Source: Minisyncoccia bacterium | Lineage (GTDB): Bacteria; Patescibacteriota; Minisyncoccia; Phycocordibacterales; UBA9973 | Reading direction: 5' to 3' | NCBI GenBank assembly: GCA_049303835.1 | Contig: JBAQNN010000002.1 | Span: 161,978-225,977, forward strand | DNA: 64,000 bases | Shown here: positions 19,898 through 46,720 of the stretch, in pieces | Layout of the letters: each line of letters opens with the position of its first letter | How positions within the stretch are numbered: the stretch's first letter is position 1 | Made by a program: the position numbers and the translations under genes | The notes under the pieces: model-generated | The model's input: only the letters and a program-made list of their open reading frames with translations | Told to the model about the DNA's origin: nothing | The model's database searches: none

Positions 19898-19981
19898 AGA
19901 GTCAAAGTTCTTCGTCAGAAGAAAAAGACTAACAGCACAACAGGTCTCGTCCTAAAAAGGCGGGGCCGGAAGGAGGACGTC

Positions 19982-20758
19982 ATGCGTCTCATCGTTGTCA
20001 CCCTCGTTTCCTTCGTACTGGCGTTCTCCGCGAACGCTCAGCCTCTCAACATCGACCCCGAGGTGCGTAGCACGTCGGCGATGTCGGAAAGCTCGGCGCG
20101 TCTGCCTCGGATGGCTCGCGCTCCGCAGATGGAGCCCACACTGTGGACTCCGTGGGAAGCCGCGGTCGTCGTCCGGTCCTCTGGACAGGTGGGGACCAAC
20201 GACATCTTCTCGGTGTCGTGTCACATTTTTACCCCCCTGCCGAAATGGGCAATGACCGAATCTTGGATCCGAAAGCCTGATGGGGAGGTTTATCTTCCCT
20301 CAGTACTTAGGGAGGACATCACTGTTCCCGATCTTTCGGGATGGCAGTGGTGGATCTGGAACGAACCTCTCCCGGCAGACTGGCCGGCTGGAGTGACCAC
20401 CTTTGAACTCATCGTTACCATCGGCTGGGGGACTCCGGACGAGAGGAAATACACCGCTGTCGCTAGGGTGGCGACGGGGGGGGTATATCCCGCCGGGGAT
20501 CCTCCTCGATTCGGACCTCTGGAAGATGCCATCGTGGACTCATCTGGAGGAGTGATTCTCCGTGGGGTCTTTAACACCCCTCCGGTCGTGGTTGCTCCCG
20601 ACTGGGTCGTCAGGAAGATTGAACTGGAGGGCGACTACTACGTCCCTCCTGGTTCCATCGGTGCTGGAAACAGACCTCTCGGTGTGTGCTCCGGCGTCAA
20701 TGGTGACCCCAACCACCTGGAGTGCTCCACTCAGATCGTATCAATCCCTGTTTTCTAG
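19982..20758 (+). CDS. Secreted protein of unknown function encoded in a GC-rich island (about 60% GC by eye)
   Basis: Signal peptide MRLIVVTLVSFVLAFSANA-QP; strong GGAGG RBS; abrupt GC shift near 19925; Trp/Pro-rich mature protein. Confidence 0.6.
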   Translation: MRLIVVTLVSFVLAFSANAQPLNIDPEVRSTSAMSESSARLPRMARAPQMEPTLWTPWEAAVVVRSSGQVGTNDIFSVSCHIFTPLPKWAMTESWIRKPDGEVYLPSVLREDITVPDLSGWQWWIWNEPLPADWPAGVTTFELIVTIGWGTPDERKYTAVARVATGGVYPAGDPPRFGPLEDAIVDSSGGVILRGVFNTPPVVVAPDWVVRKIELEGDYYVPPGSIGAGNRPLGVCSGVNGDPNHLECSTQIVSIPVF

Positions 20759-20782
20759 AGTCGCAAGACTCATCTCTCGGGT

Positions 20783-20822
20783 TCCTCGCGCGTTCGCGCG
20801 CGGGGGACCCACTTTGTTTTTA
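20783..20822 (+). terminator. GC-rich hairpin terminator ending the island
   Basis: CGCGCG-ttcg-CGCGCG followed by GGGGGACCCACTTTGTTTTT. Confidence 0.55.
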
Positions 20823-40545: not shown

Positions 40546-42273
40546 ATGGAACGAGAAATAAAAAATTTAATTAAAGATGCTTTAAAAAATCTCACCATAG
40601 ATGTGAGTGATATTGTGCTTGAGCATCCGGAAGATTTGAAAAACGGAGACTATTCTACGAATGTCGCTCTAGCTATAGCAAAGAGTATTGAAAGAAACCC
40701 AAAAGAGTTGGCGGAAGAAATAATTACGGAAATAAAAAGATTGAATGTGGATAAAAATATAGAAAAAGTGGAAGTGGCTGGTAATGGCTTTATAAATTTT
40801 TATTTAGCACGTGAATTCTTTAGTAAAAGTATTGAGGAAATTTTGAACAAAGCGGGAGATTTTGGGAAAAGTAATTTGTTGGAGGGAAAGAAAATAATGG
40901 TTGAGTATACAGATCCGAATCCTTTTAAGCCTATCCACATAGGTCATTTGATGACAAATGCAATAGGGGAATCAATCGCTAGAATCTTGGAGCATTCTGG
41001 GGCTGATATATATAGAGCAAATTACCAGGGAGATTTGGGATTGCATATAGCCAAATCCATTTATGGTCTTTTGAAAGATACCAATCTGCAAGACAAATCA
41101 GGGACTCACAATGAGCAGGCAAAGAATATCGGGAAAGCATATGTCTTGGGTGCCGGGGCTTATGAGGTTGATGAAAATGCCAAAAAAGAAATTGACGAGA
41201 TAAATAAAAAAATTTACGGGAGAAGCGATGAAGAGATAAATAAAATATATGATTGGGGCTTTAAGGTCACTATGGATGCTTTTGAAGATTTGTATAAAAT
41301 TCTCGGTACGAAATTTCAGTTTTATTTTTTGGAAAGTGTGATGGCGCCTATTGGAGAAGAGATAGTTCGTGCCAATTTAGGTGACATCTTTGAAGAGTCG
41401 GATGGAGCTATCGTTTTTAAGGCGGAAAAGTATAACCAAGAAAATCAACCCAAACTCCATACCAGAGTATTTATCACTTCCCAAGGGTTGCCTACTTACG
41501 AGACCAAGGAACTTGGGCTAACGGTGGAAAAGTTTAAAACTTTGCCCCAGATGGACTTGTCTATAGTTATCACTGCCAATGAGCAGATGGATTATATGCG
41601 AGTAGTGGCGAAAGCCTTGTCTTTGATTCATCCGGATTATGAAAGTAGAATGAAACATATTACTCACGGGATGATGCGCTTTGCTTCTGGCAAGATGGGC
41701 TCCAGAAAAGGGAATGTCGTTACCGGTGAATCTCTGTTAAATGATACTCGGGCAGATGTGTCAGAGAGGATGACAGGTAGAGATTTTTCAAAAGAAGAAC
41801 ACGAAAAAATAGCGACAGACGTGGGTGTGGCTGCTATAAAATACTCAATATTAAAACAAGGGATTGGGGGGGATATTATTTATGATTTTGAAAAATCAAT
41901 TTCTTTTGAGGGAGATTCGGGACCGTATCTGCAGTATTCTTATGCGCGGGCGAATTCTATTTTAGAAAAAGCAAAGATAGAAAATATCTTGCCGGATTTT
42001 GATACGATGCCGGATGAAACTTTTGAAATAGAAAAATTACTGTATAAATTCCCCGAAGTTGTATCTCGTTCTGCTTCTTTTTATGAACCGCATCATATTG
42101 CAAATTACTTGATAGAAGTGGCCCGATCGTTTAATAGCTTTTATGGAAATACAATTATCGTGAATACAGAAGATAAAACTTCTTCTTATAAAATAGCTCT
42201 TACTTATGCATTTACTTTTGTGATGAAAACCGGGCTACATCTCTTGGGTATCGTAGCTCCGAAAAAGATGTAA
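40546..42273 (+). CDS. argS: Arginyl-tRNA synthetase
   Basis: HIGH variant PIHIGHLMTNAIGES; ArgRS N-terminal add-on and DALR anticodon-binding C-terminus. Confidence 0.9.
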   Translation: MEREIKNLIKDALKNLTIDVSDIVLEHPEDLKNGDYSTNVALAIAKSIERNPKELAEEIITEIKRLNVDKNIEKVEVAGNGFINFYLAREFFSKSIEEILNKAGDFGKSNLLEGKKIMVEYTDPNPFKPIHIGHLMTNAIGESIARILEHSGADIYRANYQGDLGLHIAKSIYGLLKDTNLQDKSGTHNEQAKNIGKAYVLGAGAYEVDENAKKEIDEINKKIYGRSDEEINKIYDWGFKVTMDAFEDLYKILGTKFQFYFLESVMAPIGEEIVRANLGDIFEESDGAIVFKAEKYNQENQPKLHTRVFITSQGLPTYETKELGLTVEKFKTLPQMDLSIVITANEQMDYMRVVAKALSLIHPDYESRMKHITHGMMRFASGKMGSRKGNVVTGESLLNDTRADVSERMTGRDFSKEEHEKIATDVGVAAIKYSILKQGIGGDIIYDFEKSISFEGDSGPYLQYSYARANSILEKAKIENILPDFDTMPDETFEIEKLLYKFPEVVSRSASFYEPHHIANYLIEVARSFNSFYGNTIIVNTEDKTSSYKIALTYAFTFVMKTGLHLLGIVAPKKM

Positions 42274-42306: not shown

Positions 42307-45300
42307 ATGGCTGAAGAAAAAAATGTAAATAAAAAATCCGAATCGGCTCTTCGCGAAGAGCGAATACTAGAATTTTGGCGAGAAAATAAAACTTTTGAAA
42401 AATCATTGAAGCAATCAGAGGGTAAAAGGGAGTTTATCTTTTACGAAGGTCCTCCGACCGCCAATGGAAAACCTGGGATTCACCACTTGGAAGCAAGAGC
42501 GTTTAAAGATGTGATTCCGCGATACAAAACAATGCGGGGATATCATGTGCGCAGAAAAGGAGGATGGGATACACATGGACTACCGGTAGAACTTCAGGTG
42601 GAAAAAAAACTAGGGTTAGATTCCAAAAAAGCGATTGAAGAATATGGTATTGCTAAATTTAATCAGGAATGCAAAGAAAGCGTCTGGGAATATTTGGATG
42701 TTTGGAATAAATTTACAAAACGTATCGGGTATTGGGTAGATCAAGAAGATGCGTATGTCACTTACCACAATCAATTCATTGAATCTGTTTGGAATATAAC
42801 TAAAAAAATAAACGAACAAGATTTGCTTTATAAAGATTATAAAGTTGTGCCTTGGTGCCCGAGGTGTGGCACTGCCTTATCTTCTCATGAGCTTGCGCAG
42901 GGATATGAAGACATAAAAGATTTATCTGTTTATGTAAAATTTAAAGTTGTTGGGCAAGAAAATACCTTCGTTCTTGCTTGGACGACGACGCCATGGACCC
43001 TGCCGGGGAATGTAGCCTTGGCCGTGGGGAAGGATATTGAATATGTAAAAATTAAACAAGAAAATGAATTTTTCATTTTAGCCAAAGCCCGACTTTCAAT
43101 TATTGAGGGCAGTTATGAAGTTGTTGAAGAAATTGAGGGCAAAAAATTGGAGGGGCTGAAGTACGAGCCACTTTATCCATATCTTACAAATACTATTTCC
43201 GAAAGCGAAAAACCAAAATTAGAGAAATCTTTTCAGGTTTATGGTGCGGATTTTGTAACCACTGAAGATGGAACAGGAGTGGTACATACTGCAGTCATGT
43301 ATGGTCAGGACGACTTTGAGCTTGGTACAAAAATTGGTTTACCGAAACACCATTTGGTTGGTTTGGACGGCAAATTTTTACCAGGTACGGGAATTTTTGA
43401 AGGAAGATTTGTCAGAGATGAAGATGTCGCAGTCGATGTAATAAAAGATTTGGCTGGACGAGGGCTTCTTTTAAAGAAAGAAAAATATGAGCACTCATAT
43501 CCTCATTGTTGGCGTTGTCACACTGCGCTCATTTATTACGCACGAGATTCTTGGTACGTGAAAGTTTCTGATTTGAAAATTAAAGAAAAAATGATAGCTG
43601 AAAACAAAGAAATAAACTGGGAACCGTCACATATCCGTGATGGGCGCTTTGGAGAATGGTTGAGAGAGATAAAAGATTGGGCCGTGTCTCGTGAACGATA
43701 CTGGGGAACTCCTTTTCCGGTTTGGATTTGTGAAGCTTGTAAAAAGGTTGAAGTTGTTGGAAGTGTAGAAGACTTAAAAGACAAAACCAAAAAATCCGGG
43801 AATAAATATTTTGTGATGCGCCACGGAGAAGCGGACAATAATATTGATAACGGTCTCCGTAAATATAAAGATTTAGAGGAAAATGCCAAATTGACAGACA
43901 AGGGGAAAGAGCAGGTTCTGGAAAGATCCAAGGACTTCAAAGAAAAAATAGATGTAGTCATCTCTTCTCCTTATAGCAGAGCAAAAGAAACAGCAGAGAT
44001 AATTTGTAAGCAGATTGGTTTTCCACCAGAGAAAATTGTTGTTGATGAACGTATCCATGAATGGGAGATTAGTTCTTTTTTTGAGGGGAAAGAAAGGGAT
44101 TTATTTAGTAAATATTATGATTCTGGTTATCTCGATAACCCCTTTGAAGTTTTGCCAAACGGAGAAAGTTTTGTGCAGGTTGTAAAACGAGTAGGAGATT
44201 TCATTTATGATATAGAAAAAAAATATTCCGGTAAAAATATTCTTATCGTTGGTCATCAAGGGGCGACTTGTGCATTAAGTTTTTTGACGAAAGGTTTTAT
44301 GTTTAGTGATTTATCAAGTATAAATAATCCTCTGATCTCTCTTCAAAATGCCGAAATAAAAGAATTTGATTTTACCCCTCTCCCACACAACAAAGATTAT
44401 GAATTGGATTTGCATCGGCCATATATAGATGAGGTGTCTCTCGTCTGTGAATGTGGTGGAAAATTAACACGTACCAAAGAAGTGATGGACGTGTGGTTTG
44501 ATTCAGGGTGTATGCCTTTTGCGCAAGATCACTATCCGTTTGAGAATAAAAAATGGGTAGATGGTACTGGTTACCCTGCTGATTTTATTTCTGAGGCGGT
44601 AGATCAGACTCGTGGGTGGTTCTATACTTTACATGCTATTGGGATTTTAATGGGTCGTGGCAAAGCATATAAAAATGTTATCTGCTTGGGTCACTTACTT
44701 GATGCTAAAGGTAAAAAAATGTCCAAATCCCTTGGAAATATTGTTGACCCATGGGATGCTATGGAAAAATACGGAGTGGACACCTTGCGTCTTTGGATGT
44801 ATTCGGTAAATCAGCCAGGTGAATCTAAAAATTTTGACGAGAAGACGGTTGCCTTGCTTCATCAGCAAGTTTTCGGGTTACTTTACAACGTTCTTGCTTT
44901 CCATGAGCTCTACAGAAATAAGGAGATAGAAATTTTAGAAAATAAAAAATCAGATAATATTTTAGATGCTTGGATTTTAGAAAGGATGAATGTCTTGGTG
45001 GAATTAATTACCAAAAATCTTGATGGGTATAAATTACTTGAGCCAGTTAGAGCTATAAGAGATTTTATAGGAGACCTTTCCACCTGGTACTTGCGTCGTT
45101 CTCGCGACCGAATCAAAGATGGGGGCCAAGAAGCAAAGCAAACTCTATACTATATATTAAAAACCTTGGCGAAAGTCATCGCTCCGTTTGCTCCATTTAC
45201 CGCTGAGGATATCTGGTTGAAATTACGAAATGAAAAAGATGAAGAAAGTGTACACCTCACAGAGTGGCCGAAAGAAGGATTCAAACTTTTCTCTTTTGGG

Positions 45301-45795
45301 CTAAACAATAAGTCAAAAGTTCTAGAAAATATGGAGACGACTAGAAAGATAGTGACCTTGGGCCTTGAAGCCAGACAAAAAGCCGGATTAAAAGTTCGTC
45401 AGCCACTTAATCAATTACGAATTAAGAATTACGAATTAGGAATTGAATATACAGAATTAATAAAAGACGAGTTGAACGTAAAAGAAGTAATAGAAAATAA
45501 AAATATTGAAAATGAAGTGGAATTAGATATACAGATAACTCCAGAGTTAAAGGAAGAAGGGGATTACAGGGAGCTTGCTCGTGCTTTGCAAGATATGAGG
45601 AAAAAGACGGGCCTTACTCCGAGTGATGTTGTAATGCTTACTATCGAAACGGATGATGTAGGCAAAAAATTAATTCAAAAATTTGAGCCGGATATGAAAA
45701 AAACCGTATTGGCGTCCGAAATAAAATTTCAAACAAATGATGGTGAAGAAATAAAAATAGATAATTTAATTTTCAAAGTTAAAATTGAGAAATAA
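42307..45795 (+). CDS. ileS: Isoleucyl-tRNA synthetase carrying an inserted histidine-phosphatase (PGAM-like) domain
   Basis: PPTANGKPGIHH, WCPRCGTAL editing/Zn region, HRPYID, DVWFDSG, KMSKSLGN. Residues about 490-692 (FVMRHGEADNN ... VISSPYSRAKETA ... ILIVGHQGATCAL) match histidine phosphatase superfamily branch 1. Confidence 0.85.
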   Translation: MAEEKNVNKKSESALREERILEFWRENKTFEKSLKQSEGKREFIFYEGPPTANGKPGIHHLEARAFKDVIPRYKTMRGYHVRRKGGWDTHGLPVELQVEKKLGLDSKKAIEEYGIAKFNQECKESVWEYLDVWNKFTKRIGYWVDQEDAYVTYHNQFIESVWNITKKINEQDLLYKDYKVVPWCPRCGTALSSHELAQGYEDIKDLSVYVKFKVVGQENTFVLAWTTTPWTLPGNVALAVGKDIEYVKIKQENEFFILAKARLSIIEGSYEVVEEIEGKKLEGLKYEPLYPYLTNTISESEKPKLEKSFQVYGADFVTTEDGTGVVHTAVMYGQDDFELGTKIGLPKHHLVGLDGKFLPGTGIFEGRFVRDEDVAVDVIKDLAGRGLLLKKEKYEHSYPHCWRCHTALIYYARDSWYVKVSDLKIKEKMIAENKEINWEPSHIRDGRFGEWLREIKDWAVSRERYWGTPFPVWICEACKKVEVVGSVEDLKDKTKKSGNKYFVMRHGEADNNIDNGLRKYKDLEENAKLTDKGKEQVLERSKDFKEKIDVVISSPYSRAKETAEIICKQIGFPPEKIVVDERIHEWEISSFFEGKERDLFSKYYDSGYLDNPFEVLPNGESFVQVVKRVGDFIYDIEKKYSGKNILIVGHQGATCALSFLTKGFMFSDLSSINNPLISLQNAEIKEFDFTPLPHNKDYELDLHRPYIDEVSLVCECGGKLTRTKEVMDVWFDSGCMPFAQDHYPFENKKWVDGTGYPADFISEAVDQTRGWFYTLHAIGILMGRGKAYKNVICLGHLLDAKGKKMSKSLGNIVDPWDAMEKYGVDTLRLWMYSVNQPGESKNFDEKTVALLHQQVFGLLYNVLAFHELYRNKEIEILENKKSDNILDAWILERMNVLVELITKNLDGYKLLEPVRAIRDFIGDLSTWYLRRSRDRIKDGGQEAKQTLYYILKTLAKVIAPFAPFTAEDIWLKLRNEKDEESVHLTEWPKEGFKLFSFGLNNKSKVLENMETTRKIVTLGLEARQKAGLKVRQPLNQLRIKNYELGIEYTELIKDELNVKEVIENKNIENEVELDIQITPELKEEGDYRELARALQDMRKKTGLTPSDVVMLTIETDDVGKKLIQKFEPDMKKTVLASEIKFQTNDGEEIKIDNLIFKVKIEK

Positions 45796-45848
45796 GTAGT
45801 TGATATTTTTTCTTGTTAGTGTATATAATATATTTGGAGGTGTTTGTT

Positions 45849-46058
45849 ATGGTGAAGTGCGGGTTGTCATCCACCCCCGAAGAAGTCGTGTTGGAGAAAA
45901 CGGCGAATCGGATCCTTCACCGGGCGGGGTATCGTCTGGACGGCACCCCGGAGCGGCCGGAACGCCGGCACCAGGTCCACACCGTCAACCTGACGGCGGA
46001 GATGATCCAAGCGCTCGACACCTGTCGTTTCGCCAAGAAGATCTCCGGGGCTCAGTAG
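45849..46058 (+). CDS. Small GC-rich orphan ORF (69 aa), possibly ribbon-helix-helix/antitoxin-like
   Basis: GGAGG RBS then ATG; GC-rich coding segment; C-terminal HTVNLTAEMIQALD resembles an RHH beta-strand/helix; followed by its own hairpin terminator. Confidence 0.35.
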   Translation: MVKCGLSSTPEEVVLEKTANRILHRAGYRLDGTPERPERRHQVHTVNLTAEMIQALDTCRFAKKISGAQ

Positions 46059-46084
46059 AGCCCACAACATCCAAGGAAACCCAG

Positions 46085-46120
46085 CCGGTGACTCGTAAGA
46101 GTCACCGGCGTTTCTTATTT
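46085..46120 (+). terminator. Hairpin terminator after the GC-rich mini-cassette
   Basis: CCGGTGACTC-gtaa-GAGTCACCGG followed by CGTTTCTTATTT. Confidence 0.55.
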
Positions 46121-46141
46121 CGTGATAAAATAAACAAACGG

Positions 46142-46720
46142 ATGCATCACATTTATCATACTGAAGGAATAATATTGGGGAGCAAGAATTACGGCGAGAC
46201 TGGGAAGTATTATTATATTTTCACTCGTGACTTGGGGATGATTTATGCTTCAGCGCAGGGAGTGCGCAAACTTTCATCCAAACTGCGTTTTGTTTTGCAG
46301 GATTTTTCTTATGTCAAAATTGATCTGGTGCAGGGCAAGGATTTTTGGCGGGTGACCAGTGCTTCAAAAACCAACAAACTAGAACAACTTTCAAAAAATT
46401 ATGAAACCTTTTTGGTTGTCTCTAATATCGGAAAATTATTAAAAAGATTGTTGGCCGGAATAGAGCCCAACCAGGCTTTGTTTTCCGACTTGATAAACGG
46501 TTTGTCTGTTTTGGAAAAATCTGGGAAAGATGGGTTGCGAGACGTTGAAATCATCCTTGTTTTGCGTATTTTAAATAACTTGGGATATATCGGTGACGAC
46601 AAGGTCCTAGAAAGGCTTATCAAGTCTCCATTTGAAGAAAATCTAATATTTGAAGTTTCAAAATCAAAATCTCAAGTATTGAATCAAATCAACAAGGCTC
46701 TCAAGGAGACACATTTGTAA
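46142..46720 (+). CDS. recO: DNA repair protein RecO (short form)
   Basis: N-terminal OB-fold TEGIILGSKNYGETGKYYYIFTRDLGMI. The track ORF 45800..46720 reads through the upstream GC cassette in-frame and is treated as an artefactual extension. Confidence 0.6.
   Translation: MHHIYHTEGIILGSKNYGETGKYYYIFTRDLGMIYASAQGVRKLSSKLRFVLQDFSYVKIDLVQGKDFWRVTSASKTNKLEQLSKNYETFLVVSNIGKLLKRLLAGIEPNQALFSDLINGLSVLEKSGKDGLRDVEIILVLRILNNLGYIGDDKVLERLIKSPFEENLIFEVSKSKSQVLNQINKALKETHL

Follow-up and report, generated by a model that had tools for sequence, protein, structure and literature searches.

Why should an aminoacyl-tRNA synthetase carry, inside its own chain, what looks like a second and unrelated enzyme? 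The question is raised by ileS, the gene for isoleucyl-tRNA synthetase (IleRS), at positions 42307..45795 (+) of a 64,000-nucleotide stretch of DNA, referred to here as the window, from a bacterium of Minisyncoccia, a class of the phylum Minisyncoccota. An earlier, sequence-only reading of this DNA had proposed that a branch-1 histidine phosphatase, with its RHG motif, second Arg and second His intact, lies between the WGTPFPVW and HRPYID/DVWFDSG blocks of the synthetase. We found this proposal to be correct, both by profile (Pfam family PF00300) and by conservation of the residues concerned.

A histidine phosphatase domain inside IleRS

The Pfam model His_Phos_1 (PF00300) matches amino acids (aa) 502-686 of the ileS product (43810..44364, +) with an E value of 6e-27 and a score of 95 bits (cut-off 21.7) over positions 2-183 of the 194 in the profile, and the domain is supported as well by an AlphaFold model and by Foldseek. 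The excised segment 43774-44383, searched alone, gave an E value of 2.4e-28. This segment (aa 490-692) is the one originally singled out, and its coordinates proved right to within a few residues; the three motifs quoted for it were also found in place, namely, FVMRHGEADNN at aa 502-512, VISSPYSRAKETA at aa 551-563 and ILIVGHQGATCAL at aa 645-657. With so strong a match, the possibility that PF00300 would give no hit, foreseen as one way for the proposal to fail, falls away.

For residue scoring, 153 near-complete copies of the phosphatase domain were pulled out with the family hidden Markov model (HMM), with the following results. First, the RHG motif (43819..43827, +), which comprises R505, the predicted phospho-acceptor H506 and G507, is invariant in both of our alignments, A1 and A2, and its Arg and His are present in 151 of 151 scorable copies. 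Second, R558, the second phosphate-binding Arg (SSPYSRAKET; 43978..43980, +), is likewise invariant in A1 and A2 and occurs in all 153 copies. Third, the predicted proton donor E585 (IHEWE; 44059..44061, +) aligns with the conserved Glu of PhoE-type enzymes, and its position is occupied by Glu in 141/153 copies and by Asp in 10/153. Fourth, H650, the second His of the catalytic core (IVGHQG; 44254..44256, +), is again invariant in both alignments and is found in 152 of the 153 copies. An alignment of 25 orthologues has as invariant elements RHG, the Arg of S-x-x-x-R-[AT]-x-x-T, the Glu of 'RL.E', GE[SNT] and the second His. Since the RHG His, the second His and the Arg pair are conserved, the other outcome foreseen as fatal to the proposal, namely, an insertion lacking the catalytic residues, does not apply either. 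The surrounding insert evolves fast, with a mean pairwise identity of 37% versus 55-62% for the Rossmann-fold core segments of the synthetase. The invariance of active-site residues within it therefore points to purifying selection on the active site and, by this measure, the catalytic set R505/H506, R558, E585 and H650 is kept by selection.

The fold of the excised domain was predicted with confidence by AlphaFold2 (pLDDT 94.2, pTM 0.90; 45-sequence alignment), and the model includes a cap helix. Foldseek comparison with the PDB returned, at probability 1.0, PspA (4ij5/4ij6), the mycobacterial GpgP Rv2419c (a glucosyl-3-phosphoglycerate phosphatase), the riboflavin-pathway histidine-family phosphatase (HFP) 9mmh, CobC and PhoE, with TM-scores of 0.64-0.71 (about 0.65 for PspA) and identities of 18-25% among the top matches; by sequence, the top solved matches were 9mmh, PhoE and CobC. 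Thus, the insert shares with phosphatases of the PhoE/CobC/PspA/GpgP type, whose nearest structures are 9mmh, 1h2e, 6nru, 4ij5 and 4pz9, the fold, the RHG motif, the second Arg, the Glu donor, the second His, a length of about 190 aa and a small cap. On these grounds it is a genuine member of branch 1 of the histidine phosphatase superfamily, of the small capped PhoE/CobC type, and a phosphatase domain that is apparently complete and predicted to be catalytically competent. In 17 of 19 orthologues the insert has an acidic pI, between 4.8 and 6.0. One orthologue (locus L020, 5001-5708) is without about 34 cap residues and keeps all catalytic residues, such that its active site may be naturally more open.

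Despite this likeness, the insert is only 18-25% identical to the enzymes just named and fails all the curated subfamily cut-offs. Its top NCBIfam match, the RNase H/acid phosphatase model NF005567, gave 71 bits against a cut-off of 326. The CobC alpha-ribazole phosphatase model (TIGR03162) gave 65.6 bits against 162.9, and that for PspA-type phosphoserine phosphatase (NF045917) 53.4 against 350, the likeness to PspA being structural only. The dPGM models were missed as well (TIGR01258, pgm_1, 32.5 bits against 81.7; archaeal NF038349, 57.6 against 225), the GpmB equivalog was far under its cut-off, and SixA (TIGR00249, 34.9 bits against 74.5) was matched by the N-terminal 70 residues alone, the insert having a cap and SixA being cap-less. 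By these models, the insert fits none of the characterised specificity groups. Alarmone or pyrophosphate chemistry, floated in the sequence-only reading, finds no support, as the family hydrolyses phosphomonoesters. A scan with the PADLOC defence models returned nothing meaningful for the insert or for its stand-alone homologues.

The host is a type-2 IleRS. The 1162-aa product scores 876 bits against TIGR00392, an isoleucyl-tRNA synthetase equivalog with a cut-off of 621, and contains tRNA-synt_1 in two pieces (the N-terminal one at aa 20-500), Anticodon_1 and DUF5915, the last being the type-2 C-terminal domain. The nearest PDB structures are Priestia megaterium IleRS2 (8c8w, E 3e-241) and Thermus thermophilus IleRS (1ile), and the homology to this type runs over the full length (E 1e-238 to 1e-241), taking in the CP1 editing domain, CP3 Cys pairs like those of T. 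thermophilus, and the KMSKS loop (aa 804-808; 44716..44730, +), which is intact and invariant in A2 and in our motif table. The class I HIGH motif has the non-canonical GXHH form, GIHH (aa 57-60; 42475..42486, +), instead of the canonical HXGH. This is no argument against IleRS membership, and the GXHH variant works in IleRS2, where Brkic et al. (doi 10.1101/2023.01.31.526100) associate it with hyper-resistance to mupirocin. The MupA and MupB mupirocin-resistance IleRSs were rejected as assignments (785 and 763 bits against exception-level HMM cut-offs of 1900). Many insert-bearing IleRSs of Patescibacteria have HxGS or HxGN in place of HxGH, with the fourth His swapped (L004, L006, L011, L014, L018-L020, L022 and protein P0138), and the motif table of related IleRSs shows no correlation between the HIGH-motif variant and the phosphatase insert. 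This ileS is the sole one visible in the window, and its product is identical to a database protein from a 232-kb contig (P0012) annotated as 'class I tRNA ligase family protein [Minisyncoccia bacterium]'; the insert explains why annotation pipelines say no more than that.

The difference from other type-2 IleRSs lies in about 200 extra residues in CP3 that form an independent enzyme domain. In a phmmer alignment with 8c8w, residue 491 of the window protein corresponds to chain residue 475 and residue 693 to 479, such that the inserted segment (aa 492-692; 43780..44382, +) stands in place of a turn of about three residues. It is flanked N-terminally by the WGTPFPVW block and C-terminally by LDLHRPYIDEVSLVCECGG...DVWFDSG; in insert-less relatives, as in P. 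megaterium IleRS2, GS.KELKE.A runs directly into DLHRP. The protein had been described as well above typical size, and indeed the IleRSs of insert-less relatives have 947-977 aa. Its residues 493-494 pair with chain residues 492-498 of fungal IleRSs, and CP3 spans residues 473-534 in Candida albicans and 459-526 in Saccharomyces cerevisiae (PMC7191050; PMC7955072). Because of this pairing, the insert is placed by alignment within CP3, at its tip, between the Cys pairs C475/C478 (CEAC; 43729..43740, +) and C714/C716 (CEC; 44446..44454, +), the two halves of the CP3 zinc-knuckle. The claim of an insertion into the catalytic core thus stands as to the enzyme and not as to the site, which alignment to IleRS structures puts in a peripheral, variable module: CP3 of T. 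thermophilus IleRS bears a zinc motif, and its topology differs in every IleRS studied (PMC7191050; PMC7955072). In a published table of class I insertion modules, CP3 appears as a Cys-rich zinc finger 25-77 residues long, for which no function is named (PMC10810186). The linker of about 60 aa given earlier as the usual state is likewise approximate, as CP3 takes up 25-77 aa in class Ia enzymes and is very short in IleRS2. The knuckle cysteines, kept in the window protein, are gone in many insert-bearing relatives (L001, L010, L011, L014 and others).

Two features border the insert. Just upstream, aa 455-467 correspond to the CP2-CP3 linker, which in yeast IleRS (ARDWNVSRNRYWG) lines the pocket for the CCA end of the tRNA (PMC7955072). 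Downstream, the C-terminal junction PLPHNKDYELDLHRPYID (aa 691-708; 44377..44430, +) is conserved, with H694, N695, E699-H703, P705 and D708 invariant in A2. Its PLPHN..YE part is specific to insert-bearing IleRSs, as the junction motif is seen in 24 loci and is missing from insert-less IleRSs and from stand-alone phosphatases.

Distribution, insertion sites and the gene next door

To survey related genomes, we scanned GTDB with one genome per species, using as query 272 residues, namely, the insert plus both flanks. The whole query is encoded at 24 loci, all of them in Patescibacteria-type metagenome-assembled genomes labelled Paceibacterota, Nomurabacteria, Kaiserbacteria, Parcubacteria or 'Saccharibacteria', and each within a single uninterrupted IleRS frame, of 1130-1214 codons where the contig permits. 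PF00300 is also present in every one of the 120 best full-length homologues, which likewise come from Patescibacteria/Minisyncoccia-type assemblies and are 67-78% identical to the window IleRS. When the insert by itself was searched exhaustively and without a profile, 6625 cluster representatives matched at E<=1e-3 and 472 at E<=1e-10; among the best 150 (50%-identity clusters), 94 are flanked by IleRS on at least one side, the others being either fragments or free-standing proteins with about 184-233 residues. Judging by this distribution, the embedded arrangement is inherited across a large Patescibacteria clade.

CP3 is not the only place where the domain is found. When the insertion points of multi-domain relatives were mapped onto the numbering of the window protein, most of them, like the window protein, had the domain at 489/693 in CP3; the other sites were ~446/447 (first copy of P0134), ~714/719 (first copy of P0143), ~740-757, after the DSG...PFEN segment (first copies of P0150 and P0235, second copy of P0143), and ~870/880, between the KMSKS region and the anticodon-binding domain (P0209, and the second copies of P0150, P0235 and P0262). 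Therefore, the domain occupies at least four different positions in IleRS across lineages. The most copies seen in one protein are the four of P0134. Copies inside one protein are 24-35% identical and retain the catalytic residues in every tandem copy, which argues that each copy is used; possibly, redundant copies differ in specificity.

Other modules occur in related IleRSs as well. A P-loop kinase (AAA_18/AAA_33-like) takes up the 740-757 site, after DSG...PFEN, in P0276, and a GNAT domain does so in P0202, alongside the phosphatase. A C-terminal HD/HDIG domain, giving totals of 1317-1355 aa, is present in P0051, P0056, P0063, P0102, P0119 and P0128, which are relatives of about 70% identity. 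These accessory kinase, GNAT and HD domains gave generic family matches only, with no polynucleotide-kinase or CCA-HD signature found. In P0202, an IS200-like Y1 transposase domain (PF01797, E 7e-12) was also seen in frame at aa 340-461, inside the CP1 editing domain.

Where IleRS has no insert, the phosphatase may be found as a gene of its own. Stand-alone proteins of about 190 aa, orthologous to the insert, are encoded in relatives with insert-less IleRS. Three of them, P0010, P0007 and P0006, share 33-36% identity with the insert and lie directly 3' of argS and directly 5' of an insert-less ileS of 947-977 codons, an argS-hisphos-ileS order seen at L025, L026 and L029; two of the phosphatase genes end 1-3 bases before ileS and the other 137 bases before it. 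The gene for a fourth free homologue, P0236, also comes after argS, its insert-less ileS neighbour being convergent, and a more distant one, P0008, adjoins a ROK sugar kinase and a HAD hydrolase, not ileS. The gene order in relatives is smpB, argS, [phosphatase], ileS, recO, a DUF11/CLIPPER protein and a class II synthetase, with which the window agrees: argS (40546..42273, +) is followed by ileS, recO from 46142, DUF11 and a class II aminoacyl-tRNA synthetase. Because insert-less ileS relatives carry the phosphatase as the adjoining gene, the partnership between phosphatase and IleRS is, as read from these loci, one with two genomic forms, embedded domain and neighbour gene.

Neighbour-joining trees of phosphatase domains and of IleRS cores are star-like, with stand-alone/insert-less pairs in at least two positions, and L026/P0007 adjoins P0216 in both. 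This suggests co-inheritance plus more than one switch of architecture.

What the embedded phosphatase may do

The reading that we favour, with slightly more confidence than doubt, is that of an autonomous small-molecule phosphomonoesterase of the PhoE/CobC/PspA kind, tethered to IleRS and captured from a neighbouring gene. The domain would be a second, autonomous active site that hydrolyses phosphomonoesters through an intermediate phosphorylated at His506, with R505, R558 and H650 holding the phosphate and E585 protonating the leaving group, as in PhoE, CobC and PspA. That its substrate would most likely be a small metabolite, and not tRNA, is suggested by three features: the domain retains the kind of small cap that metabolite phosphatases typically have, it is acidic, and its many attachment points mean that a fixed geometry relative to the aminoacylation site is not needed. 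The fusion would most likely have come from capture of the neighbour gene into permissive surface loops of IleRS, gene proximity offering a simple route for repeated capture into the loops encoded by ileS. The benefit would be that the phosphatase is always co-expressed with IleRS and tethered to it; it would not supply a step of aminoacylation.

Several points weigh against this view. The small metabolite rests on family analogy, given that the subfamily models all miss their cut-offs, and the tie to IleRS, which persists both as neighbouring genes in two orientations and as fusions at no fewer than four sites, could equally mean functional coupling to IleRS or tRNA. The neighbour-joining trees are poorly resolved and give no direction, capture or fission. 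The conserved PLPHN..YE junction hints at a fixed rather than a floppy attachment. Since the CP2-CP3 linker lines the CCA pocket, CP3 begins near the active-site cavity although it is a peripheral module, and the phosphatase may therefore be nearer to the tRNA 3' end than the word 'peripheral' implies. A full-length AlphaFold model from a 35-sequence alignment was poor (pLDDT 65, pTM 0.39, Rossmann core below 50) and hence unusable for placing the pocket relative to the synthetic and editing sites.

Such points lead to the best placed of the alternatives, which we nonetheless regard as rather unlikely, namely, that the phosphatase acts on the macromolecular partners of IleRS itself. It could remove 2'- or 3'-terminal phosphates from damaged tRNA-Ile, making it chargeable, or it could reverse an inhibitory phosphorylation of IleRS; toxin kinases of the HipA/HipT kind phosphorylate the KMSKS loops of GltX and TrpS, which provides an analogy. 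The exclusiveness of the link to IleRS, both as neighbour gene and as fusion, speaks for such coupling, as does the CCA-pocket linker adjoining the insert, and attachment at many sites would fit a large, flexible substrate such as tRNA. The kinase, HD and GNAT modules added in related IleRSs fit too: RNA-end healing uses a kinase, a phosphatase and an HD phosphoesterase, and protein modification a kinase, a phosphatase and an acetyltransferase. However, the acidity of the domain and its capped, PhoE-like pocket, in contrast to the open one of SixA and similar protein phosphatases, argue otherwise, the accessory domains are generic, and gene proximity alone could account for repeated insertion into ileS. 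In addition, our literature search turned up no member of the histidine phosphatase family that heals RNA ends, and we know of none.

Somewhat less credence is due to the possibility that ileS encodes a missing housekeeping step, be it a PspA-type phosphoserine phosphatase, a phosphoglycerate phosphatase or mutase, or a salvage nucleotidase. By fold, the domain comes closest to PspA phosphoserine phosphatase and to the glucosyl-3-phosphoglycerate phosphatase of Mycobacterium tuberculosis, glyA (serine hydroxymethyltransferase, SHMT) and a deoxynucleoside/thymidylate kinase gene lie a few kb upstream, and the stand-alone relative P0008 sits beside a sugar kinase and a hydrolase. Yet the equivalog models for PspA, CobC, archaeal dPGM and pgm_1 all fail widely, and neither the up to four divergent copies per IleRS nor the tie to ileS is explained in this way.

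More doubtful again is an extended form of coupling, in which IleRS of these ultra-small bacteria would be a scaffold for phosphatase modules, and in some lineages for kinase, acetyltransferase or HD modules, that act on its partners. Such modules would take a blocking terminal phosphate off tRNA-Ile, or an inhibitory one off the synthetase, such that charging with isoleucine is gated or rescued by dephosphorylation. At the other extreme, it is very improbable that the insert is inert, whether as a structural or tRNA-binding element or as a functionless passenger. CP3 is variable and tolerates insertions, the insert evolves faster than the core, and about 34 cap residues have been lost in L020, all of which an inert element would allow. 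Nevertheless, Arg, His, Arg, Glu and His are kept in essentially all 153 copies at about 25-40% identity, and even in redundant copies of one protein, and the fold is predicted at a pLDDT of 94; the degenerate insert entertained in the sequence-only reading is thus disfavoured by near-invariant catalytic residues. Finally, an assembly, binning or frameshift artefact joining a phosphatase gene to ileS, which a metagenome-assembled source and the fragments among the database entries might invite, has next to no probability and was rejected, as the same in-frame architecture recurs in 24 independent species-level assemblies, in the 120 best homologues and in over 120 protein clusters that stem from separate projects, and IleRS continues in one frame on both sides with no composition break found at the junctions.

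Surroundings of ileS, known systems and significance

Rfam and tRNA scans of the window gave no match, and thus no tRNA or T-box context. Between ileS and recO lies a GC-rich patch of about 270 nucleotides (45849-46120, +; GC about 0.6 against a window mean of 0.40), which holds an open reading frame (ORF) of 69 codons (45849..46058; MVKCGLSSTPEE...) with GGAGG ahead of it and, behind it, a terminator-like hairpin, CCGGTGACTC/GAGTCACCGG, with a T run. As RNA, the patch folds with a z-score of -4.6. Nothing in Pfam, NCBIfam or Rfam matches it, and none of 33 related loci has an equivalent. Upstream of the recO ATG at 46142, the ORF 45800..46720, with its TTG start, is probably spurious. A second GC-rich island (19960-20815, +; GC 0.55-0.66), without Pfam or Rfam match, consists of AAGGAGG, an ORF (19982..20758) with a signal-peptide-like start (MRLIVVTLVSFVLAFSANA...) and a GC-rich terminator-like hairpin. 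Together, the two patches look like foreign high-GC mini-genes in a low-GC genome.

Aminoacyl-tRNA synthetases are textbook cases of domain accretion. Accordingly, part of what the locus shows is already known: synthetases accrete accessory domains, and NCBIfam recognises a GNAT-containing IleRS (NF040702, isoleucine--tRNA ligase, N-acetyltransferase domain-containing), which resembles the present case in joining IleRS to an extra small-molecule- or protein-modifying domain, as also in the relative P0202. The accessory fold is another one, however, and at 338 bits against a cut-off of 1999 the window protein is not a member. The RNase H/acid phosphatase of the Rv2228c type (NF005567) likewise fuses a CobC-like histidine phosphatase to an enzyme of nucleic-acid metabolism, but end to end and with another partner, whereas here the insertion is internal. 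Operon-neighbour 'Rosetta-stone' pairs share the alternation between a separate gene, here in the argS-ileS gap, in some lineages and an embedded domain in others; they differ in that the window type is an internal insertion, at alternative sites, and not a read-through of adjacent ORFs. Phosphatases of the PhoE/CobC/PspA/GpgP type, for their part, are free proteins, whereas the one described here is embedded in IleRS or encoded beside it, sometimes in two to four divergent copies. What is unusual, as far as these comparisons reach, is the internal catalytic domain, its multiple sites and copies, and its neighbour-gene counterpart.

That the fusion had not been described, as was supposed at the outset, agrees with our searches of the open-access literature, in which we found no mention of a phosphatase in IleRS, including in a 2026 analysis of IleRS domain evolution. 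The architecture is nonetheless abundant in sequence databases, where 'class I tRNA ligase family protein' is one of the names it goes by, and has been there for years, as in a Nomurabacteria GW2011 entry. A second, apparently active catalytic domain of an unrelated superfamily inside the catalytic domain of a bacterial synthetase appears to be undescribed.

We argue that the partnership is selected, and is more than an accident, because it is fixed in a large branch of Patescibacteria, is found at several sites and in old copies, and alternates with a neighbour gene. The insert-bearing proteins provide a natural map of the sites at which IleRS tolerates insertions, namely, CP2, CP3, after DSG and before the anticodon domain, which is useful for engineering. 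Were IleRS a scaffold for modules acting on its partners, a repair or regulation mechanism would be built into an aminoacyl-tRNA synthetase, and to our knowledge none of this kind has been recognised inside such an enzyme. If the phosphatase is coupled to the partners of IleRS, it would represent a new link between phosphate-ester chemistry and tRNA charging. The locus also offers a testable case of enzyme tethering in minimal genomes.

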